From assembly GCA_947628535.1 (NCBI GenBank), contig CANRAF010000004.1:8566-72565 (forward strand): DNA of 64,000 nt. Direction: 5' to 3'. Numbering within the stretch: the stretch's first letter is position 1; the number at the start of each line of letters is the position of its first letter. Below are positions 7,886 to 35,049 of this stretch, in pieces. The notes beneath the pieces are model-generated. The model ran no database searches. It had not been told where the DNA came from and saw nothing but the letters and a program-made list of their open reading frames with translations. Origin of the DNA: an uncultured Bacilli bacterium. Its GTDB lineage: Bacteria; Bacillota_I; Bacilli_A; RF39; UBA660. The position numbers and the translations under genes are program-made.

Positions 7886-7992
7886 TTAAATCACCGCTAC
7901 TGCCTTATTTTGACAATTTTAATTATAAACTAATACCATATTTTTTTCAATTATTTTGTTAAATTTGCTCTTTTGTAAATAGCCAAAATATA

Positions 7993-8004: not shown

Positions 8005-8050
8005 GACAATATATATCTTTTATGCTATTCTAAAATTGGAGGTATAATAT

Positions 8051-8671: not shown

Positions 8672-8674
8672 AAA

Positions 8675-8712
8675 ACAAAAGGAAAGTATTTAAACTTTCC
8701 TTTTTCTATTCC
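8675..8712. terminator. Bidirectional rho-independent terminator.
   Basis: AAAAAACAAAAGGAAAGTATTTAAACTTTCCTTTTT: GGAAAGT/ACTTTCC stem flanked by A- and T-runs. It lies between the convergent lexA and 8719..9153 genes. Confidence 0.6.
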
Positions 8713-8718
8713 CCTTTT

Positions 8719-9153: not shown

Positions 9154-9253
9154 ATTACCTAACCCCCTTATATTTTTGGTAATCTTTAATAAGTGCTTAA
9201 ATTATAGCATATTTTGAAAAAAATGTCAAATATTTTGGGAGTTTTTTAAATTT

Positions 9254-18452: not shown

Positions 18453-19240
18453 TATCTCATCACCTTTACATAAGTATTTTCATATTTATAGATTGTTCTT
18501 ATTCCAAGTAGTGCAAGTAAAAGCCCAATAACGAACCATGCACCCATCAAGGTGAAATCCATACTCATGCCATATAATAAAACATCACGGCACTGCGTTA
18601 TGATCGCGGCTACTGGATTGGCTACTATTAATATCTCATTGTATGGCTCTGGGACTCTTTTATCTAAGGCAAAGAATACACCTGAAGCGTAAAATACAAG
18701 TCTTAAAGCAATTGTAGTAATGTTAGCTAAATCTTGAACAAATACTCCAAAATGCATAAATATAGCACAAATACCAAATGTAAATATAAATAGTATTATA
18801 AAAATTGGGAAAAAATATAGAACATTCCAAGTTATAGGTACTTGGTAAATAGCCATACAAATTATTACTAATAAGAATGAAATAAAGAATTTTACAGAAT
18901 TTATGGACATTCTAGTAAGTAAAAGAATAAATTTTGGGACATACACTTTTGTTACAGTATCTCTATTTGAAAGGACTAAACGAACACTTGCAAGTAAACT
19001 TTTTTGAAAGAAACTCCAAATTGTAAGTCCAATAAATACGAACACAGGGAAATATTCAACACTTGAATTGAATACAACAATTGCTATAAATGTATAAATA
19101 AGCATAAAGCAAATTGGTTCTAAGAAAAGCCAAATCCAGCTTAAATATGATCCTGCTATTTCAGCTTTTAATCCAGATTTTGTTGCATATGCTATGTATT
19201 TAGAATATTTCTTTAAATCCTTAAAAAATCTTTTTATCAT
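18452..19240 (-). CDS. ABC-2 type permease (TagG/Wzm-like).
   Basis: 262 aa, six TM segments, ABC-2 membrane-domain architecture. Immediately upstream of the ATPase gene. Confidence 0.8.
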   Translation of the reverse strand: MIKRFFKDLKKYSKYIAYATKSGLKAEIAGSYLSWIWLFLEPICFMLIYTFIAIVVFNSSVEYFPVFVFIGLTIWSFFQKSLLASVRLVLSNRDTVTKVYVPKFILLLTRMSINSVKFFISFLLVIICMAIYQVPITWNVLYFFPIFIILFIFTFGICAIFMHFGVFVQDLANITTIALRLVFYASGVFFALDKRVPEPYNEILIVANPVAAIITQCRDVLLYGMSMDFTLMGAWFVIGLLLALLGIRTIYKYENTYVKVMR

Positions 19241-19845
19241 TCTTTATCATCTTCCTTTTGTTTTTTAAAGCTTTCATATTCATCGGGTGTATTATAATCA
19301 ATAGTATTTTTATCTACTATTATAAATTTATCTTTTATTTGTTTTACATCAAATTCAAGGTTTTGAAATGATTGATATATTTGCCAGCCTTTACAGTTTC
19401 TTATTTTGCCTGAATTAAATAAATTTCTTACATTTTCAATGTGTTTTTTAAATAAAGATGAATCTTTTACTTTAATAGCAACAATTGATTTTTCATTTCC
19501 AAAGAATAAAATATCTTCAGGTTCTGTTTCAATTATTCTTTTTATATCTTTATCTGAATAATAAGTATCTCCATAAAGAAAACAAATATTGTTTTCAATA
19601 AGCTCAGCTGTAAATCTATCTAATTCAATTATATTTTGATTTGGTTCATATCTTGTTGCACCTTCAACTTCATATCTTTTGTCATGAGAAGTTATAATTA
19701 TTTCACTATTTTTATCAAACTTTTTAAGTTGTCTTACTATTCTCTCTAAAATAACTTCGCCATTTATTTTCATCAAATGTTTTGGTGTATCTTTATAGTT
19801 GTTCCATCTTTTGCCTTTCCCATCGGCCATTATTATATATTTCAT
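19237..19845 (-). CDS. MobA-like/LicC-like nucleotidyltransferase. Putative phospho-alcohol or sugar cytidylyltransferase.
   Basis: N-terminus MKYIIMADGKGKRW...TPKHLMKINGEVILERIVRQL matches the NTP_transf_3 G-x-G-x-R motif and the following PK(A/H)L motif. Confidence 0.55.
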   Translation of the reverse strand: MKYIIMADGKGKRWNNYKDTPKHLMKINGEVILERIVRQLKKFDKNSEIIITSHDKRYEVEGATRYEPNQNIIELDRFTAELIENNICFLYGDTYYSDKDIKRIIETEPEDILFFGNEKSIVAIKVKDSSLFKKHIENVRNLFNSGKIRNCKGWQIYQSFQNLEFDVKQIKDKFIIVDKNTIDYNTPDEYESFKKQKEDDKE

Positions 19846-19863
19846 AACATCACCTTGATATTT

Positions 19864-20991
19864 TTATTTTTCTTTCATTTTCTTAATAATGTAATCAGTT
19901 ATTAATTCAGTTGATTTACCAAGTTTTTTTGGTAAATATTTTTTTCTAAATTCTTGATAAGCTTTATTATCATAATTGTTCTTTCTTATTATTTCAATTA
20001 AATCTTTAACTCTTTTTGAAGAACATGTTGGAAGCACTTTATAAGCATCTAAGTTTATTCCATTATCTTTCATATATTTATCATAATCATATACGTAGAA
20101 TAACACTTTTTTATTTAAAATAGCAGCCTCTAAACAAATAGATGAGTAATCAGTTATTACGTAATCTGCTACTGTTAAAAGTTCAGTAGATTTAAATTCT
20201 GGGCATTCATATGCTTTACTTTTACTAATATCTATTTTTTGATTAGGATGCCCTCTTACTATTAAAATAAAATCTTCCTTTTCACATTCTTTAAGAAGTT
20301 TTTTAGGACCATCTACTTCATATGTTCTAAATGTTGGAGCGTAATAAACTATTTTTTTGTTTTTAAATTCAGGATATTTTTTATAAATTTCTTTTTTTAG
20401 ATTTTTTTCATTATCTAAAAGATAGTCTATCCTTGGAAGACCAAAATGTAATAAAATATCTTTTTTTACATTAAAGCCAGCCTCATAAAATTCATCAAAG
20501 GACTCTCCTCCTGCTAATATAGCATCATAGTTTTTATGCATACACATAAGATTAGCCATTTGTTTGCTTCTGCCAGATGTAGTATCTAAACTTTGATATC
20601 CTGACTTTTTAATTTTACCAATTGAATGCCATATTTGCAAGACAAATAGTGATTTTTTATGTTTTAGTATACATACTGGTATGCAATAGGAATCTATTAT
20701 AGCAATTTTTGAAGTTGCTAAATGATACATTTGTTTTAAAGTTAGAAAAAAGAATTTAATACTATTAATTATACCTTTTTTCATTCTTCTGCAGATAAAA
20801 ACCATTTTTATATTTTTATCCTTTTTTTCTAAACTTTCCTTTATTAAACGAAAATCAACGTTTATTTCATCAGTTTGTCTACTTATAAATACTACTTTTT
20901 TATTATTAGTAGGTAAAAGTTTTAAAAAGAAATATATTATTTTTAAAACGGCTTTAAATATGTGAATTAACAATACTTTCATAGTTATCAC
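19864..20991 (-). CDS. CDP-glycerol glycerophosphotransferase (TagB/TagF family).
   Basis: C-terminal half carries YYAPTFR, RGHPNQ, and ITDYSSICLEAAILNKKVLFYVYDYDKY, which are characteristic of the TagF-family catalytic domain. Confidence 0.8.
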   Translation of the reverse strand: MITMKVLLIHIFKAVLKIIYFFLKLLPTNNKKVVFISRQTDEINVDFRLIKESLEKKDKNIKMVFICRRMKKGIINSIKFFFLTLKQMYHLATSKIAIIDSYCIPVCILKHKKSLFVLQIWHSIGKIKKSGYQSLDTTSGRSKQMANLMCMHKNYDAILAGGESFDEFYEAGFNVKKDILLHFGLPRIDYLLDNEKNLKKEIYKKYPEFKNKKIVYYAPTFRTYEVDGPKKLLKECEKEDFILIVRGHPNQKIDISKSKAYECPEFKSTELLTVADYVITDYSSICLEAAILNKKVLFYVYDYDKYMKDNGINLDAYKVLPTCSSKRVKDLIEIIRKNNYDNKAYQEFRKKYLPKKLGKSTELITDYIIKKMKEK

Positions 20992-21041
20992 CTCATTAAC
21001 TATTAATAGTTTAATGCATTATTTTAGTGTTTTAAAATAAG

Positions 21042-22091
21042 TTATTTTATAATTTTTTCTTTTCTGTAAAAATCTCCTAAAACGTTATTTCTTTGCCCTC
21101 CAAAAACTTGGATTATATTTACTCCTGATGAATTATTTGCTTCAATTACATATATATCATCATCAGTTGGTAAAACATCCCAGGCTACAAATTTAAATTC
21201 AGGAAGATTTTCAGCAAGTTTAATCATTTTGTTTTTTATTTGATTCCAGTTTGGAACTTTTACTCCTTCTATTTTTTTATTGGAATCAGGATGTTTTGAA
21301 TATTCTTTTTTATTTTGAATTGATTTTGCTTTACTTAATATTCCTGTTTCTAAATCAATTTTTGCAACTAATCCACCTTTACTTCCATTATCCACTGGGA
21401 TAGTTTTTTTACATCCTATTCGCTGAACTGCAAAAGGTATTTTTATATCACCTTCATCTCTTATGGTTATAATGCGAATTGTATTTGATGCTTTGTTATA
21501 TATATTATCTAAATATTTTGCTTGCCTTATGCAAGTAGAAATAAAGTAATTATCATTTTCACTTAATATTTTTTTTATTTCTACTTCAGCCAACTTTTCA
21601 AAATTAACTGAAAATTCATTATTTGAAAAATCAATTCTGAATACCCCAATTCCTTTTCCTACAGAAATTGGTTTAAAAAATGTGCTCTTTTCTTTTTTTA
21701 ATAAGCTTATTGCTTCATCAATTGTTGTCTCTTTATCGTCTTTATTTCTTATAACACCTTTTTCGCATTTTATTATAGTTTTTGGAGTTTTTATAAATTT
21801 TTCAATCATTTTCTCACAAATTAATTTGTTATTTAACATATATGAATTTGGATAATTTATCTTTCTAGATTTATACCAGTCAAACTCTGATAAATACTCT
21901 TTTTGAGTTTGTTTATTTAAATCATACAATGCAATTTGATCGGCTGTAAAACCTCCATTAAAGGCATAATACAAACGTTTATTAAGTGGTACTTTGAAAT
22001 GTTTCTTAGAAAATAATATTCTTACTATAAAAACAGGGATAAGCCAAAGAAATCTTTTTATTTTAAAAATAATTAATCTTATTTTTTTCAC
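21042..22091 (-). CDS. ATP-grasp_ST amidoligase paralogue B (349 aa).
   Basis: KPISVGKGIGVFRID, NTIRIITIRDEGDIKIPFAVQRIGCKKTIPVDNGSKGGLVAKIDLETG, HPDSNKKIEGVKVPNWNQI, VAWDVLPTDDDIYVIEAN. Confidence 0.65.
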   Translation of the reverse strand: MKKIRLIIFKIKRFLWLIPVFIVRILFSKKHFKVPLNKRLYYAFNGGFTADQIALYDLNKQTQKEYLSEFDWYKSRKINYPNSYMLNNKLICEKMIEKFIKTPKTIIKCEKGVIRNKDDKETTIDEAISLLKKEKSTFFKPISVGKGIGVFRIDFSNNEFSVNFEKLAEVEIKKILSENDNYFISTCIRQAKYLDNIYNKASNTIRIITIRDEGDIKIPFAVQRIGCKKTIPVDNGSKGGLVAKIDLETGILSKAKSIQNKKEYSKHPDSNKKIEGVKVPNWNQIKNKMIKLAENLPEFKFVAWDVLPTDDDIYVIEANNSSGVNIIQVFGGQRNNVLGDFYRKEKIIK

Positions 22092-22100
22092 TGTATCACC

Positions 22101-23285
22101 TTACCATTTTAATATTTTAGCTAGGTGCATTACAATAAATCTAGAATAGTTTGCATTTTTTATTTTTCTTTTTAATCTTCTAAATTTTCTAACTATTATA
22201 TTACTACCTTCGAAAACTAATTTTTCGTCTAATCCATCAAAATGATATTTTTGAATTAAATCATCAAATGAAACTAAATTTTCACATTTTGCTTTTTCTA
22301 TTATTAGATTACTTATAGAAAACTGTCTTCTATATTCTTTTAATCTCGTTCTATTTTCTTTAATTTGTGATAATCTTCCTGCTTCTTTTTTCCATTCTTT
22401 TTTCCAAGTTTTTTTAATATCTTTAAAGTGATTGTTTATTGTCGCTACTTTTATTTTTTCTTCGTCTCGTACTATTTTTATTGGAAGAGAATCAAAAGAA
22501 TAATCATCTTTTGTAAATGTAATACTTAGACACATTCCTTCATCTGTCCCCTTTTGTACACGTTGAAACTCTGTATCAAAAATGAAGTTTCCAAGAGAAT
22601 AAAATACAAGTTTTTTATTTATTCTTTCATATCCTTGTACTGTATGGGTATGATGGGCTACTATTACATCAACTCCCCAGGAAAGAAATTTTTTTATTTT
22701 CTTTTTTGTATATGGCATTGGGCTGTTTAAAAACTCTTCCCCACCATGATATACAAGTAAAACCCAATCGGTTTTTTCTTTTAATTCTTTTATTTTTCTT
22801 TTTAGTATTTTTTTATATTTTTCATGGGCTGGTCCCGGTGTTTCCATAGTTGCACTTACTGCATCTTTATATTGAAATGATAAAACTCCTACTTTAACAT
22901 CTTTACCAAGAATTAGATAATCCGTTGCTTCATCAATGTTTTTTCCAGCACCAATATATTTTACATTAGCTTTTTTAGTGTTTTCTAGGGTATCTAATAT
23001 ACCTCTTTCTCCATAATCTAACATGTGATTATTGGCAAATGAAAGTACTGGATTATTTATATACTTTTTAAGAAAACTTATTGTTTCAATATCACTTTTA
23101 TGGGCAAGAGCAGATTTTTTAGTTTTTGAAAAATCAGTTATTGGAGACTCAAAATTTAAAATATTATAGTCATTGCTATTTAAAAAATCATAGATTTTTC
23201 TATCAATATTTTTAGGATTTTTATACAAGTCTTTGGTAAATTCACTAAAAGCTATATCCCCTGTAAAACCAATTGTTGTTTTCAT
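22101..23285 (-). CDS. CapA/PgsA-family protein (capsule or poly-gamma-glutamate biosynthesis, metallophosphatase fold).
   Basis: N-terminus TIGFTGDIAFSEF, ...LSFANNHMLDYGERG..., HGGEEF, and VIVAHHTHTVQGYE are conserved CapA (PGA_cap) motifs. Confidence 0.8.
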   Translation of the reverse strand: MKTTIGFTGDIAFSEFTKDLYKNPKNIDRKIYDFLNSNDYNILNFESPITDFSKTKKSALAHKSDIETISFLKKYINNPVLSFANNHMLDYGERGILDTLENTKKANVKYIGAGKNIDEATDYLILGKDVKVGVLSFQYKDAVSATMETPGPAHEKYKKILKRKIKELKEKTDWVLLVYHGGEEFLNSPMPYTKKKIKKFLSWGVDVIVAHHTHTVQGYERINKKLVFYSLGNFIFDTEFQRVQKGTDEGMCLSITFTKDDYSFDSLPIKIVRDEEKIKVATINNHFKDIKKTWKKEWKKEAGRLSQIKENRTRLKEYRRQFSISNLIIEKAKCENLVSFDDLIQKYHFDGLDEKLVFEGSNIIVRKFRRLKRKIKNANYSRFIVMHLAKILKW

Positions 23286-24388
23286 TAACTATTCGCCTCC
23301 TCTTCTTCTTTTTGTTTTTCAATTAACTTATACATTTTATCGAAATATGATCTATATCCTTTTTTAGTAAATGTTTGAATAGTTACACATTGTGGTCTTG
23401 CATTTCCTTCTACTAAAACCCAGCCATCATTTGTTAAGGCAAGATCCCAACCAACACAGTGCATTTCAGAAAGCTCTGATGCCAAGCTTTTTACTGTTAC
23501 TAAAAGTTCATTCCATTTTGGAATTTGAAATCCTTTAAAAGTAATATTTGAATCAGGATGTACTTTTTCTTTATCACCTTTCCAGTCGAATCCATCACTT
23601 ATTATTTTTCCTGTTTCACTATCTATTAAGGCTCCAAGTCCTGAAGCACCCATATTATCTACACTACTTCCACCTTGGCCTGTTCTAATAAATGCCCAGA
23701 GAATGGATACATCTTCTTTATACTGAAATGTAACAACTCTGATTGTGTTAACTGAATTTTTATGAAAACAACCTAATTCATTTGATTGTTTAATCAATTC
23801 CTCAGCAACATAAGGAGCTTTTTCGATTGTATAGTTAAATAACTCTTTTTTATTTTTAAAATCTTTTACATTTATAATTTCTATTCCTTCGCCACTATGA
23901 CCTGAAAATGGTTTTAAAATAAATTTATCTTTATCTTTAATAAAATTGTTAAATATTTTTTCTTCTGTTTCATCTTTGATACATATTAAATCTCTTTTAT
24001 AGTATTTTTTAAATACTTTGTATGATAAATTTTTCTTATCTAAAACCTTTCTAAATTTTCTAGTATTAATAACTCTGTAATACTTATTAGTTAATTGTCT
24101 AGTTATATATGTGTCTCTTTTATCATATGGAACCTTTTCAAAATCAAATAAATAATATTCGCCTGCACGCAGAAAATATATATATCTATAAACAATAAGT
24201 TTCATATACATTTTTTTAAATTTTAATTTTTTTATATCTTCTCCTTCAAAGTTATATATTTCTGTTATAGTATCTTCTTTTATATTTTTGTATTTGCCAA
24301 ATATTATAAAACAAACTTTTAAAAATAAATAAATTAGTACAACAGACTTATTGTTTTTTTCATATATTTTTCTTAAAGTATTTCTCAT
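23285..24388 (-). CDS. ATP-grasp_ST amidoligase paralogue C (367 aa).
   Basis: KPFSGHSGEGIEIIN, NTIRVVTFQYKEDVSILWAFIRTGQGGSSVDNMGASGLGALIDSETGKI, HPDSNITFKGFQIPKWNEL, VGWDLALTNDGWVLVEGN. Confidence 0.7.
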   Translation of the reverse strand: MRNTLRKIYEKNNKSVVLIYLFLKVCFIIFGKYKNIKEDTITEIYNFEGEDIKKLKFKKMYMKLIVYRYIYFLRAGEYYLFDFEKVPYDKRDTYITRQLTNKYYRVINTRKFRKVLDKKNLSYKVFKKYYKRDLICIKDETEEKIFNNFIKDKDKFILKPFSGHSGEGIEIINVKDFKNKKELFNYTIEKAPYVAEELIKQSNELGCFHKNSVNTIRVVTFQYKEDVSILWAFIRTGQGGSSVDNMGASGLGALIDSETGKIISDGFDWKGDKEKVHPDSNITFKGFQIPKWNELLVTVKSLASELSEMHCVGWDLALTNDGWVLVEGNARPQCVTIQTFTKKGYRSYFDKMYKLIEKQKEEEEANS

Positions 24389-24471
24389 TTTTTCACTCCT
24401 TTTTAATTTTCTATATAATTATATCATGCATAATATAATTTATAAAGAAAATTAGTTTATAAACACTATAA

Positions 24472-26487
24472 TTATTTAATAGGTTCAAATTTTATTTTTT
24501 TATCTTTCGCATATTTATGCGCATAAGAGTTTTTGTTTCCTTTTATAACTACATTATTACTTTTATAAAAAGCATAATTACTTATTTTTTGTACTGAATC
24601 AGGTATTGTTATTTCTTTTAAATTCTTACATTTTGCAAATGAATATTTTCCTATAGTTAGAAGTCCATCAGGTAATTCAATTTCTTTTAAGTTTTTACAA
24701 GAATAAAATGCTTCTTTTCCAATTGCTTTTAAATTTTTATTAAAGTTTATTTTTTCAATTGTACTACCATAAAAACATCTTTTAAAAATACGAGCCAAAT
24801 CATTATTTAAAGTTATTTCTTTTATTACTTTATTATCTTTAAATATTTCTGCTCCAATTTTTTCTACTGGTAAATTATTTATTTCATTAGGTAGTGTTTC
24901 TTTTTCTTCAATTTGCTTTACTTTAGTTATAGTAATCCAAGTTTTATATTGATTAAATGAGTATTTTTTATCTTTTTTAACTTTATATTCCTTATGAGAT
25001 GTTGCAAGTTGTTCTCCAATAATTGTTCCGAATTGTTTGTCTATAATGGCTGCAAAATTCATACCATGAGATGCTTTAAATAGAATAATGTCATCTTTTT
25101 GCAAGTTTTTATTTAAAGCATTTACCAGTTCCTCTTTATCTTTACAATAGATAGAATTTTTCCTTTTTTTACTATATTCTTCATATGCATATTTCATTTT
25201 TTCTCCATTAAATATGATAAGGTCGATATTATGCTCCAAGAGAAGTTTTCCAACATCACGGTGGATTTGTTCAGAAATATTTCCAAGTTCAAAGATATCT
25301 CCAAGTACTGCTACTCTTCTTGCGCTTTCTTTTATTTCTATTAGCTCAAATGTTTTTAAAATATTTTTAATAGCATCATAAGATGAGTTATAACAATCTG
25401 CTAAAATTTTATATTCACCAACATTTATTAAGTTTTGTCTAACGCCTTTTGTTTTATATTTAGTAATACCTCTTATTATTTTTTCTTCACTAATATTTAA
25501 ATATTTTCCAATTATATAAGCAGTTAAAGCATTTAATATATGATGTTCTCCTATTACTTTTAATTCAACTGGAATTTCTTTGTTTTCAATACTATCTACT
25601 ATAATAAATCTTGTTCCTTTGCTAGTTACTTTAATATATTTAGCATAATAGTCTGCTTTTTTATTATTTAAGGAAAAAGATAGTCTTTTTTGAACAAATT
25701 TATGTTTTCTTAAAATATCATCATCATAATTAATAATTGCAAGTCCATCTTTTTTGCCATAATCTGAAAGAGTAAATTTTTCTTTTGCTATATTTTCTCT
25801 TGACCCATACCATTCAATATGTGAATCTTTTATATTAGTATAAACTGCAATATCAGCTTCGAGAAGAAGCGCAGATCTTTTTACAATATCATAGGCTCCA
25901 TTTCCAGCTCCTGCTTCTTGGAGTAATATTTTGTCATTATAATTTAATTTTTTTACATTTTCAGCAGCTTTGAATGCAGAATTACTATTACCAGCAGATG
26001 CCACCATTTTGTTTTTATATTCTTCTTTTAAGCATGCTTCTATCATATCTTTAGTTGAAGTTTTACCAATAGAACCTGTTACTGCAATTACTTTTGCTTT
26101 TGATTGGTTTCTTATATAGTTTAAAGTTTTTAGTCCTGCGGATACCGGATCTTTACATATTAAACATCTCGCATTTTCTATTTTTTCGGGTGTTACAACA
26201 AACATGGCATTTTTACTAATTTTTTCTTTCATTTTGTCAGTTAAATTAAGATATCTAAATGTATAATAAATACATCCTGGTTTTATATTTTTGTATGATA
26301 TAGTTGGTTCTTTTATTTTTTTTCTTTTTAAAGATTCATATTCTTTTGGCACTTCTATTCCAGTTATTTCAGAAATTTTCTCTAAAGTTAATCTTTTTTT
26401 ATTTGCAAAAATTACTTTAAAAAATAATCTTTCTATTTTTCTATAAATTATTGCCAATTTTCTTATTATTTTTTTCATTTTTTTCAC
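24472..26487 (-). CDS. Mur-ligase-family protein (MurF-like amide ligase) fused to C-terminal BspA-type leucine-rich repeats (LRR_5).
   Basis: Mur ligase P-loop VIAVTGSIGKTSTKDMIEA. MurF-like NIKDSHIEWYGSRENIAKEK. C-terminal 120 aa carry repeats of the pattern IGKEAFYSCKNLKEIELP / IGKYSFAKCKNLKEITIP. The start abuts the xseB stop (RBS GGTGA inside xseB). Confidence 0.7.
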   Translation of the reverse strand: MKKMKKIIRKLAIIYRKIERLFFKVIFANKKRLTLEKISEITGIEVPKEYESLKRKKIKEPTISYKNIKPGCIYYTFRYLNLTDKMKEKISKNAMFVVTPEKIENARCLICKDPVSAGLKTLNYIRNQSKAKVIAVTGSIGKTSTKDMIEACLKEEYKNKMVASAGNSNSAFKAAENVKKLNYNDKILLQEAGAGNGAYDIVKRSALLLEADIAVYTNIKDSHIEWYGSRENIAKEKFTLSDYGKKDGLAIINYDDDILRKHKFVQKRLSFSLNNKKADYYAKYIKVTSKGTRFIIVDSIENKEIPVELKVIGEHHILNALTAYIIGKYLNISEEKIIRGITKYKTKGVRQNLINVGEYKILADCYNSSYDAIKNILKTFELIEIKESARRVAVLGDIFELGNISEQIHRDVGKLLLEHNIDLIIFNGEKMKYAYEEYSKKRKNSIYCKDKEELVNALNKNLQKDDIILFKASHGMNFAAIIDKQFGTIIGEQLATSHKEYKVKKDKKYSFNQYKTWITITKVKQIEEKETLPNEINNLPVEKIGAEIFKDNKVIKEITLNNDLARIFKRCFYGSTIEKINFNKNLKAIGKEAFYSCKNLKEIELPDGLLTIGKYSFAKCKNLKEITIPDSVQKISNYAFYKSNNVVIKGNKNSYAHKYAKDKKIKFEPIK

Positions 26488-26715
26488 CTATTCATCAATT
26501 TTAAAATCTTCTAAAGTATTGTCTTTATTTAGAGATTTAGTAATAGTTTCATTTGCATCTTCTAAAATTTTATTACATTTGTTTGCTAGAACCATTCCTT
26601 CGTTAAATTTTTCTATAGCATCATCTAAAGGAATGTCCCCATTTTCGAGTTTGGTTACAATATTTTCTAACTCTTCTAAATTTTCTTCAAAACTTTTTTC
26701 TTTTTTAGTTTCCAT
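26488..26715 (-). CDS. xseB: Exodeoxyribonuclease VII small subunit.
   Basis: 75 aa. FEENLEELENIVTKLENGDIPLDDAIEKFNEGMVLANKC is the canonical XseB sequence. Overlaps xseA. Confidence 0.9.
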   Translation of the reverse strand: METKKEKSFEENLEELENIVTKLENGDIPLDDAIEKFNEGMVLANKCNKILEDANETITKSLNKDNTLEDFKIDE

Positions 26716-27916: not shown

Positions 27917-28301
27917 CTTTCATAATGCTATCTAACATCCCATTTATTAATTTTACTACTTTTTCATCACTATATTTTTTCGAAAGTTCTATTGCTTCAT
28001 TTATTGCAACAATATCTGGAGTATCAGTATAAAGAAGTTCATAAATAGCAAGTGAAATTATGGCCTTATCAACTTTACTTACTCTATCAATGCTCCAGTC
28101 TTTCATATATTTATTAGCTATACTGTTTAATTTTTCTTCACGCTTTATTACTTCTTTTATAGAAGTGGTTACAAATTCGTTTTCTGCCTCTAAATTTTCC
28201 TTAATAATATCTTTTAATTCATATGATAGGTTTTTTTCTTTATAAATATATACTTGATATAAAACTTTAATAATTATTTCTCTAAGGGCACTTCTATTCA
28301 T
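27900..28301 (-). CDS. nusB: Transcription antitermination factor NusB.
   Basis: 133 aa. NusB family helices (...AIISLAIYELLYTDTPDIVAINEAIELSKKY...). Overlaps the xseA start. Confidence 0.9.
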   Translation of the reverse strand: MNRSALREIIIKVLYQVYIYKEKNLSYELKDIIKENLEAENEFVTTSIKEVIKREEKLNSIANKYMKDWSIDRVSKVDKAIISLAIYELLYTDTPDIVAINEAIELSKKYSDEKVVKLINGMLDSIMKGEKHE

Positions 28302-28581: not shown

Positions 28582-30168
28582 TTAAACTGTTTTTTCATCT
28601 TCATCAAACCAAATGTATTTATCTATTGTATCTCTTATTCCTTTTCCTTTAGCTATAGCCCAGTAGTATTGCTGTAAAGTTGCATCTCCATCATGATTTC
28701 CTTCAATTAGTTGAACGCTCCCATCTTCGTTTATTACAGCGTCCCAACCAACATATGAAACAGTTTTAACAACTTTTGCAGCCTCTTCAACCATTTTTAA
28801 TACTTTATCCCATGATGGAACTTGAAAGCCTTTAAACTTTACATTTGAAATTGGATGTTTTTCTACAAGCTCTCCAAATTTTGTACTACCATCACCTATT
28901 ATTTTACCAGTTTTAACATCAACTGGAGCAATTACTCCGCCGGCAGACCAATTATCAATAAAGCTTCCTCTTGAGGCGCCGAATCGCACTGTTGCATTTA
29001 TTATATCTACTTTGCCATCCTTATAATATGTATGAATTCTTATAGTGTTTACTGTTTCAGAGTTAAATTTTGCCATATCTTTATGCTGAATTATTATTTG
29101 TTCTACTATTCCCTTTTTATAATGTTTTATCTTTTTATATGTTATATAGTTGATAATTTCATATTTACTGACTTTATATTTTCTTATACCTACACCACAT
29201 GCAGTATCTAGTGGTTTAAATATAAATTCTTTTTCTCCGTTTATTAATTTTTTGTACTCATTATAATTTAATGTTTCTACAGAATACCACTTTCTTTTTA
29301 TCCATTTTTTAAATTTGTTATTAAATAAAATTTTTTTCTTGAAATATTTCCAAGTATCTGCATAATCAGTTGACCTTAAATATAGCTTTCTCCAAACTTC
29401 AGTTGTGATAAATTCTTTTTGTTTTTGAGGATTCATTTTATATAGGTTATATACATCAAATTCATGAAAATTGCTGCCACAATTTATTCTTGATTTTAAT
29501 ATTTCAAGATTAAGTTTAGCTTCGTTCCAATTCATTTCTTCCATTATTCTTCTTCTGTCTTTATCTTCTTGTTCATGAATTATCTTGTTTGCTAAAGGAA
29601 TTCTTTTTGATCTTATTTTTTTGTATTGTTCTATGTTTTTTAATTCTTTAGATGAAAGACTATATTTTCCGCTTACAATAAATTTTAATTCATTATAGTT
29701 TTTTTCTTTAGCAATTTTTAATCGTTCTTCTGCTTCCTCTTTAGAACAATTTGTTTTCTCACTTATGATGTTTATATACCATTTTTTATTTAAATTTCTT
29801 TTTTCAATTGATTTTTTAATAGTTTCTTTAAGTGATTCTTTATCTTTTTCAGTAAGGTCCCATACTTTATATTTATAATATTGCCATAATTTTAAATCAT
29901 ATTTTTTTGCATCATTTAAAATTTGTTTTTCGGATAAACTAGACTCTTTATTTATTTTTTTTATGTACTCTTTTTTCTTTTTTTCATTTTCTCCAATCAT
30001 TTTTAACTTATTTTTATTTAAACAATAGTATTTATACTTTACATAATCATTGATGCTTATTCCACATATTTTGGCATAAATTATTTTACTGGTTGATTTT
30101 ATAACTCCTTCTCCGGTATTTTTCTTAACTTTTCTTATACATCTTATTAGTTGTTTTAATTTTTTCAT
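28582..30168 (-). CDS. Long ATP-grasp_ST amidoligase paralogue P1 (528 aa). N-terminal triple-repeat domain plus C-terminal ATP-grasp.
   Basis: C-terminal motifs KPLDTACGVGIRKYK, NTIRIHTYYKDGKVDIINATVRFGASRGSFIDNWSAGGVIAPVDVKTGKI, HPISNVKFKGFQVPSWDKV, VGWDAVINEDGSVQLIEGN. The N-terminal 250 aa carry three repeats of about 30 aa (AKICGISINDYVKYKYY / AKKYDLKLWQYYKYKVW / AKEKNYNELKFIVSGKY). Confidence 0.7.
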   Translation of the reverse strand: MKKLKQLIRCIRKVKKNTGEGVIKSTSKIIYAKICGISINDYVKYKYYCLNKNKLKMIGENEKKKKEYIKKINKESSLSEKQILNDAKKYDLKLWQYYKYKVWDLTEKDKESLKETIKKSIEKRNLNKKWYINIISEKTNCSKEEAEERLKIAKEKNYNELKFIVSGKYSLSSKELKNIEQYKKIRSKRIPLANKIIHEQEDKDRRRIMEEMNWNEAKLNLEILKSRINCGSNFHEFDVYNLYKMNPQKQKEFITTEVWRKLYLRSTDYADTWKYFKKKILFNNKFKKWIKRKWYSVETLNYNEYKKLINGEKEFIFKPLDTACGVGIRKYKVSKYEIINYITYKKIKHYKKGIVEQIIIQHKDMAKFNSETVNTIRIHTYYKDGKVDIINATVRFGASRGSFIDNWSAGGVIAPVDVKTGKIIGDGSTKFGELVEKHPISNVKFKGFQVPSWDKVLKMVEEAAKVVKTVSYVGWDAVINEDGSVQLIEGNHDGDATLQQYYWAIAKGKGIRDTIDKYIWFDEDEKTV

Positions 30169-30181
30169 TATATACTTCCTT

Positions 30182-31756
30182 TCACTTGATATATGGCTTT
30201 ATTATATTTAAAATTCCTTTTTCTTCTGTGATTCCATAAATAGATTGGAATACACGCATTGCATGATTATGGTTTCCTTCGATTAATTCGATTTTGTTAT
30301 CATTAGTAATAGCGATATCCCATCCAACATATACTACATCTTCAATTTTTTTTGCTACCTCATTTATTGTTTTTATTACTTTATCCCAATTAGGTATTTG
30401 GAAACCTTTAAATTTTATATTTGAGATTGGATGAGTTTTATAAATATTTCCTTTTTTATCTGCACCATCAGTATCAATTTTACCTGTTTTAGTGTTGATG
30501 CCCGCGATTATTCCGCCTGCCGACCAGTTATCATAATTATTTTTTACACCTGTCCTAAAAACAGCTGCTAATATATTTACTTTCCCGTCAACTTTAATTG
30601 TTGCTATACGAATAGAATTACATGATTCTTCATGAAACTTTGCAGTGTCTTTATGTTGAATTATAAATTCTTCAATTAATCCGGGTCCGCTTTGCATTAT
30701 ACATTCGTAAACATTTCTATTTTTCTTTTCGTTTTCGTTTACCTTAAATTTTTGAAAACCCTTGCCTTCCTGCATATCTAATGGCTTATAGGCAATTAAA
30801 TTTAATCCTTTTATATTTTTTTCGAAATCTTCAAATGTTAGATTTTCTGTTAAAAACCATTTTCTATTTATCCATTTTTTAAAGGTTTTATTAAATAAAG
30901 ATTTGTCTTTAAAATATTTATACTTTTCTTTTGGAACCCAATACTTTATTTTCATTTTAAAATGATTATCTTCTGTCATGAATTTACGTTGTTCTTCTTT
31001 TGATTTATTATATAGTTTATAAAGATAATATTCATCTCCATTACAACCACAATTTATTCTGGCATTAATATAGTTTATACGATATCTTCCAATACTAATC
31101 CCCATTTCATTAGAAGCTTTTAATCTTTGATTTTGTTTTTCTTTTTGTTTTTCTTCAAAACTTTTTTCTTCCTCTTTTGAAAGAATTGGATTCTCTTTTT
31201 CTTTTAAATTTTCTAAGTCTTTTTTACTTAATAAATATAAATCTTCTGTTATGAATTTTTTGTATGAATATCCTTTTTTTCTAGCAATATCCATTCTTTC
31301 TATTGCTTCTTGCTCCTTTAAATTAGTTTTTTCCATTACAACTTTTGCATACCATAATTTGTTCTTTTCATTTTTTTCTTGTAACTTATCAAGTGCTTGT
31401 TTGTATTCCTTTAACTCCTCTAGTGTGAATTCCCACATCCTGTCTTTTATAAACATTTTATAAGTTATTCCAAGTTTTTGAGAAGTTTTAACTAGCTTTA
31501 TTGCTTCGCTTTTACTAACCCCCCCCCCAGCATATTTTTGGGTCTTTTTTATTGCTTCTTTTTTTAGTTTTAGTATTTCTCCAAGTTCAATCAATTCTTC
31601 TTTTTTCTTTTTATAACTTTTATTTTTTGCATAATCATTTAGACTTATTCCATATTTATGTGCCTTTATTAGCCTTTTTATTATTTTAAAACTATTCCAT
31701 CCTGTTTCTCGTTTTATCTTATTAAAGTTTTTTATCTTTTTCTTCATGTTTTTCAT
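30182..31756 (-). CDS. Long ATP-grasp_ST amidoligase paralogue P2 (524 aa). Contains an in-frame G10 tract.
   Basis: KPLDMQEGKGFQKFK, NSIRIATIKVDGKVNILAAVFRTGVKNNYDNWSAGGIIAGINTKTGKI, HPISNIKFKGFQIPNWDKV, VGWDIAITNDNKIELIEGN. N-terminal repeats AHKYGISLNDYAKNKSY / SQKLGITYKMFIKDRMW / ARKKGYSYKKFITEDLY. Confidence 0.7.
   Translation of the reverse strand: MKNMKKKIKNFNKIKRETGWNSFKIIKRLIKAHKYGISLNDYAKNKSYKKKKEELIELGEILKLKKEAIKKTQKYAGGGVSKSEAIKLVKTSQKLGITYKMFIKDRMWEFTLEELKEYKQALDKLQEKNEKNKLWYAKVVMEKTNLKEQEAIERMDIARKKGYSYKKFITEDLYLLSKKDLENLKEKENPILSKEEEKSFEEKQKEKQNQRLKASNEMGISIGRYRINYINARINCGCNGDEYYLYKLYNKSKEEQRKFMTEDNHFKMKIKYWVPKEKYKYFKDKSLFNKTFKKWINRKWFLTENLTFEDFEKNIKGLNLIAYKPLDMQEGKGFQKFKVNENEKKNRNVYECIMQSGPGLIEEFIIQHKDTAKFHEESCNSIRIATIKVDGKVNILAAVFRTGVKNNYDNWSAGGIIAGINTKTGKIDTDGADKKGNIYKTHPISNIKFKGFQIPNWDKVIKTINEVAKKIEDVVYVGWDIAITNDNKIELIEGNHNHAMRVFQSIYGITEEKGILNIIKPYIK
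31480..31640. repeat. Near-identical DNA segment of about 160 bp shared with 34780..34940 (paralogues P2 and P4).
   Basis: By eye the two stretches are almost identical, for example ...cttttactaaCCCCCCCCCCagcatatttttggg(t/c)ttttttattgcttctttttttagttttagtatttctccaagttcaatcaattctt... Confidence 0.7.
31519..31528 (-). repeat. Homopolymeric G10 tract (C10 on the plus strand) within paralogue P2 (codons about 76-79, ...KYAGGGVSKS...).
   Basis: Plus strand ctaaCCCCCCCCCCagc. The coding strand reads GCT GGG GGG GGG GTT = A G G G V. Confidence 0.9.
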
Positions 31757-31817
31757 ATCAAAATCTCTCCTTAATTATGTCTATATTTTAATTACAAATA
31801 TATTTTCTATATTAAGT

Positions 31818-33371
31818 CTATTTATCATTAAGATATTTTTCTACTAATGGCCTAACGCCTTTGTTTTCTATTACAGCATATGGATACTGAAATATTCTAA
31901 TTCCAGGATTATGATTTCCTTCAATTAATTCAATTTCACCATTTTTAGTTATTGCTATATCCCATCCTATATATGGCATTTTCGGCACTTCTTTTGATGC
32001 GTCTTTTAATTTTTTTATTATTTCATTCCATTTTGGAATTTGAAATCCTTTTATTTTTGTATTAGTATCTGGATGTAGCTCATAAATGTTCCCTTTTTTG
32101 TCTACTGCATCTGTTATAACGATTCCTGTTTTAGGATTAATTGATGCTACAAGACCTCCGGCAGTAAAATTATCTATGGTTTTTGTTTTATTACATCCCA
32201 TGCGAAGGGCTGCCATAATAATTTCAAATTTTCCATTTCTAATTATAGTCATAATTCTTATTGTATTTAAAGAGCCTGGATATATTTTACCTATATTTTC
32301 ATCTTGCTCTATAACTTCTTCTATTATATAATCTTTATTTTTAATTTTTTTATATGTAAAATAATCGCTAAAAATATTTCTATTTACTTTGTATATATTT
32401 ATTCCACTTCCACCATAATCATATAATGGTTTTACAATTATTTTATTAAGATTAGAAATTTTTTCTTTAAAATCATAATAATCTTCAAAATCTGATGCAA
32501 TAAACCATTTTCTATGTAAATAATTTTTAAATTTTTCATTGAATAGTGCTTTACTATCAAAAAATTTATAATTTCCTCCATAATCACAGTATTTTATACT
32601 CATTTTTAAACAAACTTCATTAGTCATAAATTCTTTTTGCTTATCCATATCATACTTGTATAACATTAATTGATAATAATCATTTAATTTCGCTTGGGAA
32701 ATTGCTCTTGATTTTAAAAATTCTATTTTAAATCTTGGCTCTGACCAATTCATTTCCTTTCTAATTTTTTGTTCATATTCTTTATTTTCTTTTTTTATCT
32801 GCTTAACATTTTTTTTCTTAAATACTGGTTTTGGATAAACTTTAATTTCTTCAACAGTTAATTTTTCTAATCCATTTAACATAAAATTAACTGTTGAATA
32901 TCCTCTTTCTCTAGCAATATTTAGTTTTTCAAGTACTTCATCTTTAGATTGGCCTGTTTTATCCATTGCTACTTTTATATACCATTCTTTGTCTTCTTTT
33001 GTTTTTTTATGTTTCTTGTTTAGTGCTTCACCATATTCAACTAGTTCATCTAAAGAAAAATTCCACATCTTGCCAAGTGTATACATTTTGTATGTTATTC
33101 CATATGATTGCGCTACATTCAATCGTTCCTTTCCCTCTTTTTTAGATAATTTTTGTTTCTTTATTGTTTTATTAAGGGCATTCTTTTTATATTTTAATGT
33201 TTTGCTAAGTTTTTTTAATTCTTTTATTGTCATATTATAACATCGATTTTTTATATATGGAGTCATAGTAATTCCATACATTTTAGCCATCATCAATTTT
33301 TTTATTATTTTAATATTGCTCCATTTTGTTGCTCTTTTTATTACCCTTAAATTTTTTCTAATTCGTTTCAT
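31818..33371 (-). CDS. Long ATP-grasp_ST amidoligase paralogue P3 (517 aa).
   Basis: KPLYDYGGSGINIYK, NTIRIMTIIRNGKFEIIMAALRMGCNKTKTIDNFTAGGLVASINPKTGIV, HPDTNTKIKGFQIPKWNEI, IGWDIAITKNGEIELIEGN. N-terminal repeats AKMYGITMTPYIKNRCY / AQSYGITYKMYTLGKMW / ARERGYSTVNFMLNGL. Confidence 0.7.
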   Translation of the reverse strand: MKRIRKNLRVIKRATKWSNIKIIKKLMMAKMYGITMTPYIKNRCYNMTIKELKKLSKTLKYKKNALNKTIKKQKLSKKEGKERLNVAQSYGITYKMYTLGKMWNFSLDELVEYGEALNKKHKKTKEDKEWYIKVAMDKTGQSKDEVLEKLNIARERGYSTVNFMLNGLEKLTVEEIKVYPKPVFKKKNVKQIKKENKEYEQKIRKEMNWSEPRFKIEFLKSRAISQAKLNDYYQLMLYKYDMDKQKEFMTNEVCLKMSIKYCDYGGNYKFFDSKALFNEKFKNYLHRKWFIASDFEDYYDFKEKISNLNKIIVKPLYDYGGSGINIYKVNRNIFSDYFTYKKIKNKDYIIEEVIEQDENIGKIYPGSLNTIRIMTIIRNGKFEIIMAALRMGCNKTKTIDNFTAGGLVASINPKTGIVITDAVDKKGNIYELHPDTNTKIKGFQIPKWNEIIKKLKDASKEVPKMPYIGWDIAITKNGEIELIEGNHNPGIRIFQYPYAVIENKGVRPLVEKYLNDK

Positions 33372-33486
33372 TTTTTACTCCTTAATTATTTTCACTATAT
33401 TCATTATAATTAGTTTTAAAAATATAGTCAAATAAAAAACATAGCATTTATCTCACAAAATATATGTATTACTATGTTTTTTTGTT

Positions 33487-35049
33487 TTATTTTAAATAGG
33501 GTTTTATGACATTACCTATACCTTTATCTTCTAAAAGAGCATACGCTGATTGAAAAACGCAGACATCATGATCATGATTTCCTTCAATTAGCTCAATATC
33601 GCCATTTTTGGTAATTGCAACATCCCAACCAATATATGGCATATTTTCTACAACAGTAGATGCTTCTTTTAATACTTTTACTATCTCTTTCCACTTAGAT
33701 ATTTGCTCGCCTTTAAATTTTTGATTTGTTATAGGGTGTTTTTTGTAGATATGTCCTTTTTTATCTGAAGCATCAGATATTATTTTTCCTGTTTTTGGAT
33801 CTATTATAGTTATTATTCCTCCAGTTGACCAATTATCATATTCATTATTTACTCCAATTCTAAGAACAGATCCAAGAATTGTAAATTTTCCATCTATATT
33901 CATAGTAGCAATTCTTAAAGTATTACAGGATTTATTATTAAATTTAGCAGTGTCTTTATGTTGAATTATAAACTCTTCAACAATTCCATTTGGTTGTTTT
34001 TTTATGTAATTATAAACTCTTTTATTTTGTTTTTTACTTTCATTTACTTCAAATTTTTTAAATCCTTTCCCCTGAAGACTACTAATTGGTTTATAAGCAA
34101 TTAAATTTAATCCCTTTATATTTTTTTCGAAATTTTCAAATGATAAATTTTCAGTTACAAACCATTTTCTTTTTACCCATTTCTCAAATGTCTTATTAAA
34201 CAATTCTTTATTTTTAAAATAAATATAATTTTTTTGATAATCACAATATGTAAATATCATTCTCCAATGCTTGTCTACAGTTATATAATTCCTTTGTTGT
34301 TTTTCGCTTTTATTATATAGTTTATATACTAAAAATTCTCGTTCACAACAACCACAGTTAAGCTTTGCCTTTTCACATTCAATTCTGTATCTGCTGTTAG
34401 TCCAGTTCATCTCTTCCATTACTTTTTTCTTATCTTGATTTATTCTTTTTCTTAGCTGCTTATTTTTTTTCTTATCAGTTTTTGATTTTGTATTGTCTTT
34501 TTTATTTAAACAATCTATTTCATTATTTGATAAAAGATACATATTTCGTATTATTATATCAGAATACGAATATCCTTTACTTGATAGTTTATTTATTGCT
34601 TCTAAAGCTTCTTCATTAGTAAGTTTAGATTTTTCACTAATTAATTTTACATAATATTCTTTTCTCTCTTTATAATTTATCTTTTTTAAATCTAATATTT
34701 CTTTATACTCTTTTAATTCTTCTTTAGTAAATTCAAAGCATTTATTATTTAAATATTTTTTATATGTTATACCAAGTTTCTGGGCAGTTTTAACTATTTC
34801 TATTGCTTTGCTTTTACTAACCCCCCCCCCAGCATATTTTTGGGCTTTTTTTATTGCTTCTTTTTTTAGTTTTAGTATTTCTCCAAGTTCAATCAATTCT
34901 TTATTTTTCTTTTTATAACCCTTGTTTTTTATATAATCGTCTAAATTTATTCCGTATTCTCTTGCTCTTACTAATCTTTTTATTATCTTTATATTATTCC
35001 ATTTTGTTTGTTTTTTTAGCTCTTTTAGATTTTCTGATGTCCTTCTCAT
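33487..35049 (-). CDS. Long ATP-grasp_ST amidoligase paralogue P4 (520 aa). Contains an in-frame G10 tract. Closest paralogue of P2.
   Basis: KPISSLQGKGFKKFE, NTLRIATMNIDGKFTILGSVLRIGVNNEYDNWSTGGIITIIDPKTGKI, HPITNQKFKGEQISKWKEI, IGWDVAITKNGDIELIEGN. N-terminal repeats AREYGINLDDYIKNKGY / AQKLGITYKKYLNNKCF / SSKGYSYSDIIIRNMY. Confidence 0.7.
   Translation of the reverse strand: MRRTSENLKELKKQTKWNNIKIIKRLVRAREYGINLDDYIKNKGYKKKNKELIELGEILKLKKEAIKKAQKYAGGGVSKSKAIEIVKTAQKLGITYKKYLNNKCFEFTKEELKEYKEILDLKKINYKERKEYYVKLISEKSKLTNEEALEAINKLSSKGYSYSDIIIRNMYLLSNNEIDCLNKKDNTKSKTDKKKNKQLRKRINQDKKKVMEEMNWTNSRYRIECEKAKLNCGCCEREFLVYKLYNKSEKQQRNYITVDKHWRMIFTYCDYQKNYIYFKNKELFNKTFEKWVKRKWFVTENLSFENFEKNIKGLNLIAYKPISSLQGKGFKKFEVNESKKQNKRVYNYIKKQPNGIVEEFIIQHKDTAKFNNKSCNTLRIATMNIDGKFTILGSVLRIGVNNEYDNWSTGGIITIIDPKTGKIISDASDKKGHIYKKHPITNQKFKGEQISKWKEIVKVLKEASTVVENMPYIGWDVAITKNGDIELIEGNHDHDVCVFQSAYALLEDKGIGNVIKPYLK
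34780..34940. repeat. Near-identical DNA segment of about 160 bp shared with 31480..31640 (paralogues P4 and P2).
   Basis: See the partner repeat. It includes the poly-G tract and encodes ELIELGEILKLKKEAIKK(A/T)QKYAGGGVSKS...QKLGITYK. Confidence 0.7.
34821..34830 (-). repeat. Homopolymeric G10 tract (C10 on the plus strand) within paralogue P4 (...KYAGGGVSKS...).
   Basis: Plus strand ctaaCCCCCCCCCCagc. Same codon context as the P2 tract. Confidence 0.9.

Follow-up and report, generated by a model that had tools for sequence, protein, structure and literature searches.

The locus described here raises the question of which amide bond is formed, and on which molecule, by an enzyme that joins the core of a Mur ligase to leucine-rich repeats (LRR) of the BspA type. 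The gene, MurF-LRR, lies on the minus strand (24472..26478) of a 64,000-nucleotide stretch of contig CANRAF010000004.1 from an uncultured Bacilli bacterium; this whole stretch is called the window. As far as the sequences tell, MurF-LRR represents a real, conserved and unstudied family of MurF paralogues with an LRR tail, and it is probably not the housekeeping MurF. On three counts, namely the curated score, the signature of the N-terminal domain and the genomic context, the protein falls outside MurF. As to its function, the chances are about even that it is an accessory amide ligase that belongs to a variable module for putting peptide on a wall polymer, and not an enzyme of ordinary peptidoglycan.

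The predicted product has 668 aa, counted from an ATG at 26478 to the stop codon at 24472-24474, and is 100% identical to a database protein, P0001 (P-numbers designate the proteins or protein clusters, and L-numbers the loci, compared with the window). The Pfam positions given here use the numbering of the open reading frame 24472-26487 (minus strand), which has 671 aa if counted from a GTG. The protein exceeds the gathering thresholds of both Mur ligase domains, Mur_ligase_M (PF08245; residues 136-325, E=2.4e-33, 116.3 bits against 24) and Mur_ligase_C (PF02875; residues 352-473, E=8e-15, 56.2 bits against 28.4), as well as the cut-off of the BspA-type repeat family LRR_5 (PF13306; residues 540-645, E=3e-28, 98.7 bits against 27.7). 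The tail alone scores 102 bits. The Mur-ligase core with an LRR_5 tail, as described in the first-pass annotation of this DNA, is thus borne out, and the motifs quoted there are all present (GSIGKTSTKDM, NIKDSHIEWYGSRENIAKEK and two IGK..F..CKNLKEI..P repeats).

The AlphaFold2 (AF2) model, for which the input was an alignment of 23 family sequences, has a mean pLDDT of 92, a pTM of 0.85 and no segment below 50. It contains, in this order, an N-terminal helix, three Mur-type domains, a beta-rich linker and a solenoid, all encoded on the minus strand. The polybasic N-terminal helix covers residues 1-28 (26395..26478; helical at residues 2-28 in the model). The diverged MurF N-terminal domain (residues ~29-125; 26104..26394) keeps the fold and has lost the D-x-R and G-E-x-x-D-G-H motifs. 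The central ATP-binding domain (25489..26103) contains the P-loop GSIGKTST, E188, T214/N215, H220, K234, N250/D252 and H312/N316, and the C-terminal ligase domain (25030..25488) contains R347, D361-x-Y-N, GD..ELG, H406 and FKASH. The beta-rich linker (residues 484-536; 24871..25029; AF2 strands at 499-541) is specific to the family and conserved within it. The BspA-type LRR_5 domain (24553..24870) has about five repeats of 22-23 residues, and the confident model places strands every 22-23 residues, as in a periodic solenoid; the structure prediction that had been proposed as a check of the tail therefore came out in its favour. The sequence matches of the tail in the PDB are the BspA-type LRR proteins 4fs7 and 4gt6, TpLRR (6mlx) and PcpA (4cp6). 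In a Foldseek comparison with the PDB the top ten matches of the model are all MurF, the best being 4qf5_A (E=1.3e-31, TM(target) 0.84).

Hydropathy analysis found neither a signal peptide nor a transmembrane or other hydrophobic segment in MurF-LRR. Consequently, the enzyme is placed in the cytoplasm, LRR included, in agreement with the location assumed earlier. The charge and hydrophobic moment of the N-terminal helix were computed, and the net charge across the first 32 residues is +10. Such a polybasic helix occurs only in the family clade that is located in gene clusters (net charge +6 to +14) and is absent from canonical MurF.

The continuous Mur_ligase_M, Mur_ligase_C and LRR_5 architecture is shared by about 65 protein clusters, the most distant at 28% identity, so that the fusion does occur in other genomes, the comparison that had been suggested at the outset. 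All of them derive from assemblies of uncultured Bacilli, Bacillota or Clostridia, and in the databases they are named no more specifically than 'Mur ligase family protein' or 'leucine-rich repeat protein'. Two genes joined through a frameshift or a mis-assembly were considered as an explanation and ruled out, since the same architecture recurs in independent assemblies and the AF2 model is confident over the junction; the linker between ligase and LRR is also conserved within the family. The probability that the gene is an assembly or annotation artefact is accordingly negligible. A literature search returned nothing on the MurF-LRR fusion or its gene set, and nothing relevant on PF14397/ATPgrasp_ST or on ATP-grasp enzymes together with teichoic acid.

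Canonical relatives give a hint of the origin of the family. Canonical MurFs dominate a profile search of genome contigs, and among the matches listed the family is represented by L001-L003. The patterns TGS[IV]GKTST and D[IL][IV]LFK[AG]SH are common to the family and canonical MurFs. 'KASH' and 'YNSS' were tried as family-specific substitutions and rejected, because canonical MurFs of low-GC Bacilli carry both too. The canonical MurFs of L076 and L024, from metagenome-assembled genomes (MAG) of low-GC Bacilli/Tenericutes, have 'FKASH' and 'YNSS' variants like the family. These shared variants suggest a duplicated MurF of a low-GC Firmicute as the source of the family. A further group, P0066-P0074, comprises 553-aa proteins with LRR_5 and Mur_ligase_M and no match to Mur_ligase_C, which are 38% identical to the window protein across 41% of the query; they may represent truncated or rearranged relatives of the family.

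The curated model of MurF, TIGR01143, has a cut-off of 288.6 bits. The window protein scores 230.8 bits, below this cut-off, and eight more members drawn from all clades of the family score 229-245 bits, whereas two canonical MurFs from low-GC Bacilli/Tenericutes MAG reach 364 and 367 bits. The loss is unevenly distributed along the protein. In an alignment of 23 family members with 15 canonical MurFs, counts were made of those columns in which the canonical set is conserved to 85% or more, and the family keeps 1 of 15 in the N-terminal domain, 33 of 63 in the central domain and 18 of 29 in the C-terminal domain. The N-domain signature (D-x-R, F-x-A-x-x-G-E-x-x-D-G(-H) and G-A) is not retained, the central-domain loops N-N-x-I-G-x-P and G-E-I are also lost, and the Pfam search detected PF01225 in no family member. 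The N-terminal domain of MurF contains the uridine-ribose pocket (PMC11569785). On the other hand, both groups keep GKTST, E188, T214/N215, H220, K234, N250/D252 and H312/N316, and likewise R347, D361/Y363/N364, D394..G399, H406 and K468/S470. With its catalytic residues retained, MurF-LRR is predicted to be catalytically competent, and the donor-side C-terminal domain appears better conserved than the acceptor side.

Neighbour-joining analysis of the central and C-terminal domains placed the family in a clade apart from the 18 canonical MurFs included, with the support of 100 of 100 bootstraps. Two MurF-LRR paralogues are present inside one cluster in both L002 and L090. The genomic context differs as well: 11 canonical loci have a second, weaker Mur-ligase match directly upstream of murF, read as murE, and in the 64-kb window there is no other Mur ligase and no ddl, and hence no murE/mraY (dcw)/ddl context. 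The scores, the lost N-domain columns, the separate clade, the paralogue pairs and the sequence divergence described below together point to an active, ATP-dependent ligase with MurF chemistry and a different acceptor, and not to the essential MurF.

The partners of MurF-LRR were examined in the related loci. An ATPgrasp_ST gene is beside or near the ligase gene in the window, L081, L084/85, L086, L087, L090 and L002, and a Ddl that passes the D-Ala-D-Ala ligase cut-offs adjoins it in L002, L088 and L089. The CapA/MslH-like protein PGA_cap is encoded in the cluster in the window, L081, L090 and L002, and three independent fusions join it to the ligase, namely P0065 (C-terminal), the first ligase of L002, L002a (N-terminal), and a 1384-aa protein of L090. 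TagF-like and ABC-2/ABC genes accompany the ligase in the window, L081, L086, L090 and L002, and L088 has the ABC-2/ABC pair only. The most recurrent partner is therefore an ATP-grasp ligase (ATPgrasp_ST or Ddl), PGA_cap comes next, and the usual frame is a TagF/TagGH-type export system. The functional link to a CapA homologue and ATP-grasp enzymes, as conjectured in the first-pass annotation, is upheld by the synteny of the window, L081, L086, L090 and L002 and by the three fusions.

The closest loci, L090 and L086, occupy the same chromosomal site as the window. L090 has the order hisS, PP-loop gene, deacetylase, nusB, xseA, xseB, and its HisRS (P0166, same contig) is 68% identical to that of the window. 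The 1384-aa protein (5830-9984), which contains LRR_5, PGA_cap, MurF and LRR_5, starts 12 nt after xseB, and its C-terminal part has 49% identity to the window ligase. It is followed by the second MurF-LRR and an 864-aa fusion of ATPgrasp_ST with a GT2 domain. From there on, seven genes are colinear with those of the window: ATP-grasp (67% identical), PGA_cap (59%), ATP-grasp (62%), TagF-like (75%), nucleotidyltransferase (65%), ABC-2 (76%) and ABC ATPase (85%). In L086, xseB is followed by two ATP-grasp genes and the ligase.

The remaining loci are more diverse. L081 has a TagD-like gene, a TagF-like gene, a 607-aa protein of no assigned family, MurF-LRR, PGA_cap, ATP-grasp, PGA_cap, ATP-grasp and ABC-2. 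L002, from a Clostridia MAG, begins with a PGA_cap-like-MurF-LRR fusion (991 aa), Ddl, ABC-2, ABC, TagF-like and ATP-grasp genes, and continues with a nucleotidyltransferase-like gene, PGA_cap, ATP-grasp and the second MurF-LRR. L088 contains a TupA-type ATP-grasp gene, Ddl, a MurF-LRR-PGA_cap fusion, ABC-2 and ABC, and in L089 MurF-LRR is followed directly by Ddl. L084, L085 and L087 have two ATP-grasp genes, MurF-LRR and then an ATP-grasp gene or a 614-aa protein, with no tag genes nearby. The 607-aa protein of L081 (8145-9968) and the 614-aa protein of L087 (12004-13848) have similar N-termini and each is directly beside MurF-LRR; neither has a family match, save a weak one to DUF6395. Finally, the members of the solo clade (L001, L003, L082/83) are situated between rpsT or gpr/spoIIP and unrelated genes, e.g., a short-chain fatty acid transporter gene.

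The genes of the module diverge at different rates. In the comparison with L086 and L090, the PP-loop protein, NusB, XseA and XseB are 68-81% identical, and housekeeping and backbone genes (TagF-like, nucleotidyltransferase, ABC-2 and ABC) are 65-85% identical. MurF-LRR, in contrast, is 35-49% identical and most ATP-grasp genes are 30-48% identical, the exceptions being the two colinear short ones of L090 (62-67%). The ligase genes between the backbone genes are mostly 30-57% identical across the three loci. A conserved backbone with fast-diverging ligases is read as a variable, serotype-like cassette for a surface structure.

In the window, the genes from 35049 down to 15254 are all on the minus strand. 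The window has a GC content of 25.8%, and the GC content of the locus equals that of its flanks. The best match of the window HisRS other than itself is 71% identical and labelled 'Bacilli bacterium', in keeping with a low-GC Bacilli lineage. The immediate downstream neighbour of the ligase gene encodes an ATPgrasp_ST protein of 367 aa with an N-terminal hydrophobic helix (23285..24388; Pfam E=5e-48). Next is the calcineurin-fold PGA_cap protein (PF09587) of 394 aa (22101..23285; Pfam E=2e-52, 178 bits), in which hydropathy analysis found no membrane anchor or hydrophobic segment. The CapA homologue had been described as adjacent to the ligase; it is one gene removed, with ATPgrasp_ST in between. 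A second ATPgrasp_ST protein of 349 aa, also with an N-terminal hydrophobic helix, is encoded at 21042..22091. It is followed by a TagF/TarB-like CDP-glycerol glycerophosphotransferase (19864..20991; Glyphos_transf E=5e-54, 184 bits), which scores 128.7 bits on the NCBIfam TarB model, under its cut-off, and does not reach the equivalog cut-offs of TarB, TarF or TarL. A small nucleotidyltransferase assigned by family matches (IspD/MobA-like; 19237..19845), a TagG-like ABC-2 permease with six to seven hydrophobic segments (18452-19240) and a TagH-like ABC ATPase assigned by its orthologues (17709-18452) come next. The orthologues of permease and ATPase in L086 and L090 match ABC2_membrane and ABC_tran and are 66-85% identical to the window genes. 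The cluster ends with the seventh ATPgrasp_ST gene (16421-17716) and an Acyl_transf_3 O-acyltransferase gene (15254-16360). With a TagF-family glycerophosphotransferase and a TagG/TagH-type ABC-2 exporter, the locus is of the wall teichoic acid (WTA) type, though in its backbone only; no TagO, TagA or LCP gene was seen among the open reading frames annotated in the window cluster.

Upstream, four long ATPgrasp_ST paralogues (517-528 aa) are encoded in tandem at 28582..35049. Each has an unassigned N-terminal domain of ~250 aa, which is without a Pfam match up to E<=1 and may represent a domain not yet described. The four proteins are 35-55% identical to each other, and their N-terminal region is helical, with three 'K-x-G-I-S/T-x-x-x-Y'-like units. 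Most enzymes of the locus (16421-24388 and 28582-35049) begin with strongly basic or hydrophobic helices, for example MKKIIRKLAIIYRKIERLFFKV in the ligase, MKKIRLIIFKIKRFLWLIPVF in one ATP-grasp protein and MITMKVLLIHIFKAVLKIIYFF in the TagF-like enzyme. These helices may act as a common signal that brings the enzymes to the membrane or to a polyanion.

The PGA_cap proteins are probably peptide epimerases, by analogy with MslH. The sole solved PDB relatives of the window protein are the MslH entries 8gq9/8gqa, and it keeps the N-H-x-x-D motif and the equivalents of MslH H259, E262, H292 and H295; the alignment of the two leaves out the equivalents of D11 and E44. MslH epimerises a C-terminal residue through a metal-dependent acid/base mechanism (PMC10406935), and an epimerase function has been proposed for CapA (PMC8179263).

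What follows is the scheme inferred from these data for the acceptor and the donor, for PGA_cap as an epimerase and for the function of the LRR. The TagF-like transferase and the small nucleotidyltransferase would build a polymer of the glycerol-phosphate type at the inner face of the membrane, to which the GT2 enzymes present in L086 and L090 would add sugars. The ATPgrasp_ST ligases, seven in the window, would then add amino acids; the ATP-grasp-GT2 fusion of L090 suggests that the sugar substituent is the point of attachment. One or two PGA_cap proteins may epimerise the residue at the growing end, giving a decoration possibly with D-amino acids. Subsequently, MurF-LRR would activate the carboxylate of the decoration and couple it to an amino acid or to a dipeptide that an ATP-grasp enzyme has produced, and ligation following epimerisation would trap the D-form. 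The donor-making enzyme would be Ddl in the distant members and an ATPgrasp_ST protein in the window, which mirrors the Ddl-MurF pair. The LRR tail and the basic helix might replace the recognition of UDP, by holding the enzyme on its PGA_cap partner or on a polyanionic, membrane-bound substrate. The docking of the LRR onto CapA or the ATP-grasp enzymes that the first-pass annotation put forward is hypothetical. The basic or hydrophobic N-termini of the ATP-grasp and TagF-like proteins fit such a membrane- or polyanion-associated complex. The decorated product would finally be exported by the TagGH-like ABC transporter.

A more specific version of this scheme is a hybrid wall polymer of a novel kind, in which a glycerol-phosphate (glyco)polymer of the TagF/TagGH type would carry a short peptide like the stem of peptidoglycan, made in the cytoplasm by ATP-grasp enzymes, epimerised in place by CapA/MslH-like enzymes and capped by MurF-LRR with a D-Ala-D-Ala-type dipeptide. 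Through this peptide the product could be cross-linked into peptidoglycan by penicillin-binding transpeptidases instead of being attached by an LCP phosphotransferase, and the ligase cassette would be serotype-like. In this full form the proposal is improbable.

Several observations weigh against the decoration of a wall polymer. Poly(glycerol phosphate) offers no carboxylate of its own. The ligase genes of L001, L003 and L082 lack ATP-grasp, PGA_cap and tag genes in their vicinity, and the solo clade thus implies that the enzyme can do without the module or use genes at other sites. In L084 and L087 the ATP-grasp and ligase module has no adjacent tag genes. The window PGA_cap protein scores 43 bits on the MslH model, which has a cut-off of 700, and the equivalent of H261 is Gly.

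A rival proposal is that MurF-LRR is the housekeeping MurF of the organism, which adds D-Ala-D-Ala to UDP-MurNAc-tripeptide, with an LRR tail acquired, e.g., for localisation. MurF itself is known from textbooks as an essential enzyme and is targeted by antibiotics. The proposal draws on the best sequence and fold matches, which are to MurF, on the complete set of catalytic residues, on the ddl gene that directly adjoins the ligase gene in L089, L002 and L088, on the ordinary chromosomal surroundings of the solo members and on the 64-kb window without a second Mur ligase. It is nevertheless improbable, because the entire family remains under a curated cut-off that canonical low-GC Bacilli MurFs pass easily, and because one in 15 positions of the N-domain signature is kept. 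The fully supported separate clade, the two copies per cluster in L002 and L090 and the lack of the murE-murF tandem of canonical loci argue in the same direction, and so does a ligase that is 35-49% identical where the housekeeping proteins of relatives are 68-81% identical. If the enzyme is not MurF, it could still act on peptidoglycan precursors, UDP-MurNAc-pentapeptide or lipid II, where together with the ATP-grasp and PGA_cap proteins it would build or extend side branches or cross-bridges, and would then resemble MurT/GatD or the enterococcal ATP-grasp D-aspartate ligase. Stem peptides supply the carboxylates that Mur and RimK-like ligases need; the modules of L084, L085 and L087 without tag genes alongside, the solo members and the Ddl linked in distant members are in keeping with this role. 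However, in five independent loci TagF-like and TagGH-like genes are interspersed among those of the module, a sugar polymer is what the ATPgrasp_ST-GT2 fusion hints at, and mraY, murG, fem and pbp genes were seen in none of the clusters. An action on peptidoglycan precursors is therefore considered unlikely.

The poly-amino-acid system that the first-pass annotation had in mind is a different case. PgsB belongs to the Mur-ligase superfamily, and a PgsB/CapB-like synthetase that polymerises amino acids with CapA into a capsule like poly-gamma-glutamate would account for the PGA_cap partner in the cluster, repeatedly fused to the ligase, as well as for the TupA-type ATP-grasp gene of L088. The ligase is MurF-like by sequence and fold, however, and its 20 NCBIfam matches at E<=0.01 include no PgsB/CapB model, the top ones all being MurF. 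Moreover, no CapC/PgsC or CapD was found among the annotated open reading frames of the locus, the window PGA_cap protein has no membrane anchor, and the TagGH-type exporter with the TagF-like transferase implies a lipid-linked glycopolymer route. The idea of such a capsule finds little place in these data and its probability is very low.

The position of MurF-LRR behind xseB also needs an explanation. The genes nusB (27900-28301), xseA (26705-27916) and xseB (26488-26715; Exonuc_VII_S in Pfam) lie upstream of the ligase on the minus strand and overlap or abut. The junction reads GAT GAA TAG GTG AAA AAA ATG on the minus strand (26479..26490, with TAG at 26488-26490, then GTGAAAAAA, then ATG). 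The ATG had been said to abut the xseB stop codon, with the ribosome-binding site inside xseB; the abutting codon is GTG, and the Shine-Dalgarno sequence AGGTG, of which this GTG forms part, overlaps the stop codon instead. The ATG at 26478 is the likely start of MurF-LRR on these sequence features, and the gap from xseB is 9 nt. The co-transcription with nusB-xseA-xseB claimed earlier is plausible, as the gap leaves no room for a terminator and the L090 orthologue begins 12 nt past xseB. It is even likely, given the overlapping or abutting genes, the short gap, the Shine-Dalgarno sequence over the xseB stop and the lack of a terminator-like site between xseB and MurF-LRR in a site scan of the window. 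Upstream of nusB there are a terminator-like hairpin (28394-28377) and a promoter-like site with 11 of 12 matches (28348-28320), although at 26% GC the promoter scan is uninformative (148 sites versus 139 expected). The 83-nt AT-rich gap after the ligase (24389-24471) contains an extended -10-like element, TGATATAAT (site 24446-24418), and a strong Shine-Dalgarno sequence, AAAGGAGTG, for the next ATP-grasp gene; judged by these elements, the gap may be an internal promoter.

The adjacency to xseB is not a trait of the whole family. The xseB-ligase order recurs in L090 and, one step removed by the two ATP-grasp genes, in L086, whereas L081, L084, L082, L089 and L002 have other neighbours and the order is absent from the rest of the family. 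It is read as a lineage-specific result of the growth of the polymer locus around nusB-xseAB, with no functional link to exonuclease VII. In the three related genomes (window, L086 and L090) the housekeeping genes nusB-xseA-xseB are thus found inside a wall-polymer locus.

Other features of the window are more distant from the ligase. SpoIVB is encoded at 14198-15172, after the Acyl_transf_3 gene, and its presence makes spore formation by the source organism likely. On the minus strand, a DUF2207 membrane protein (39715-41394) has as its neighbour a protein that combines a transglutaminase core with Listeria-Bacteroides repeats (38117-39628). The window has no Rfam matches.

MurF-LRR appears to keep the chemistry of MurF with the parts for substrate recognition swapped, and so illustrates the redirection of the Mur scaffold. 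Its repeated pairing with CapA-like proteins, including three fusions, bears on the question of the role of CapA/PgsA and fits the proposal that the CapA family epimerises a residue which the ligase then extends. The locus predicts that common uncultured gut Bacilli and Clostridia decorate a polymer of the teichoic acid type with peptides made by ligases. If true, this would add a new class to the known surface structures and would matter for recognition by phages and by the immune system. The present value of these results is a well-defined, testable family and locus, as far as can be deduced from sequence.

The known systems nearest to MurF-LRR each share a part of it. With MurF (TIGR01143; PDB 4qf5, 1gg4 and 2am1) it shares the three-domain fold (TM 0.84 to 4qf5), the P-loop, the Mg/ATP residues, the lysine at the carbamylated position and the C-domain motifs, as well as an ATP-grasp neighbour, which is Ddl in distant members. 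It differs from MurF in a score below the cut-off, in the absent D-x-R / G-E-x-x-D-G-H signature of the N-terminal domain, and in the addition of the beta-rich linker, the LRR_5 domain and, in the window clade, the polybasic N-terminal helix. It also lies outside the dcw/murE context, forms a separate clade and has several paralogues per cluster. The partner protein has in common with MslH, a lasso-peptide C-terminal epimerase (8gq9), the calcineurin-like PGA_cap fold, the N-H-x-x-D dyad and the H259/H292/H295 equivalents; it differs in its 43 bits against a cut-off of 700, in the Gly at H261 and in a substrate that would not be a ribosomal peptide.

The PgsB/CapB-PgsC-PgsA(CapA) system likewise pairs a Mur-superfamily ligase with a PGA_cap protein, and a coupling of extension to epimerisation is plausible in both. 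In the window, on the other hand, the ligase is MurF-like, CapC/CapD are absent, export is TagGH-like, and PGA_cap is soluble or, in other loci, fused. The WTA loci (TagF/TarB, TagD/TarI, TagGH) have in common with the window the backbone of Glyphos_transf, nucleotidyltransferase and ABC-2/ATPase genes, to which the window adds eight ATP-dependent amide ligases and the CapA-like protein. To our knowledge, neither is part of the known WTA pathways, and the known D-alanylation is carried out by DltABCD outside the cell, with no cytoplasmic ligases. Sugar-associated ATP-grasp amidoligases and the TupA/teichuronopeptide system of alkaliphilic Bacillus also place ATP-grasp genes in surface-polysaccharide loci, and a TupA-type ATP-grasp gene adjoins a family member in L088. 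These sugar-associated ligases are predicted to place amino acids on glycopolymers, and we know of no MurF-like ligase or LRR domain described in such systems.

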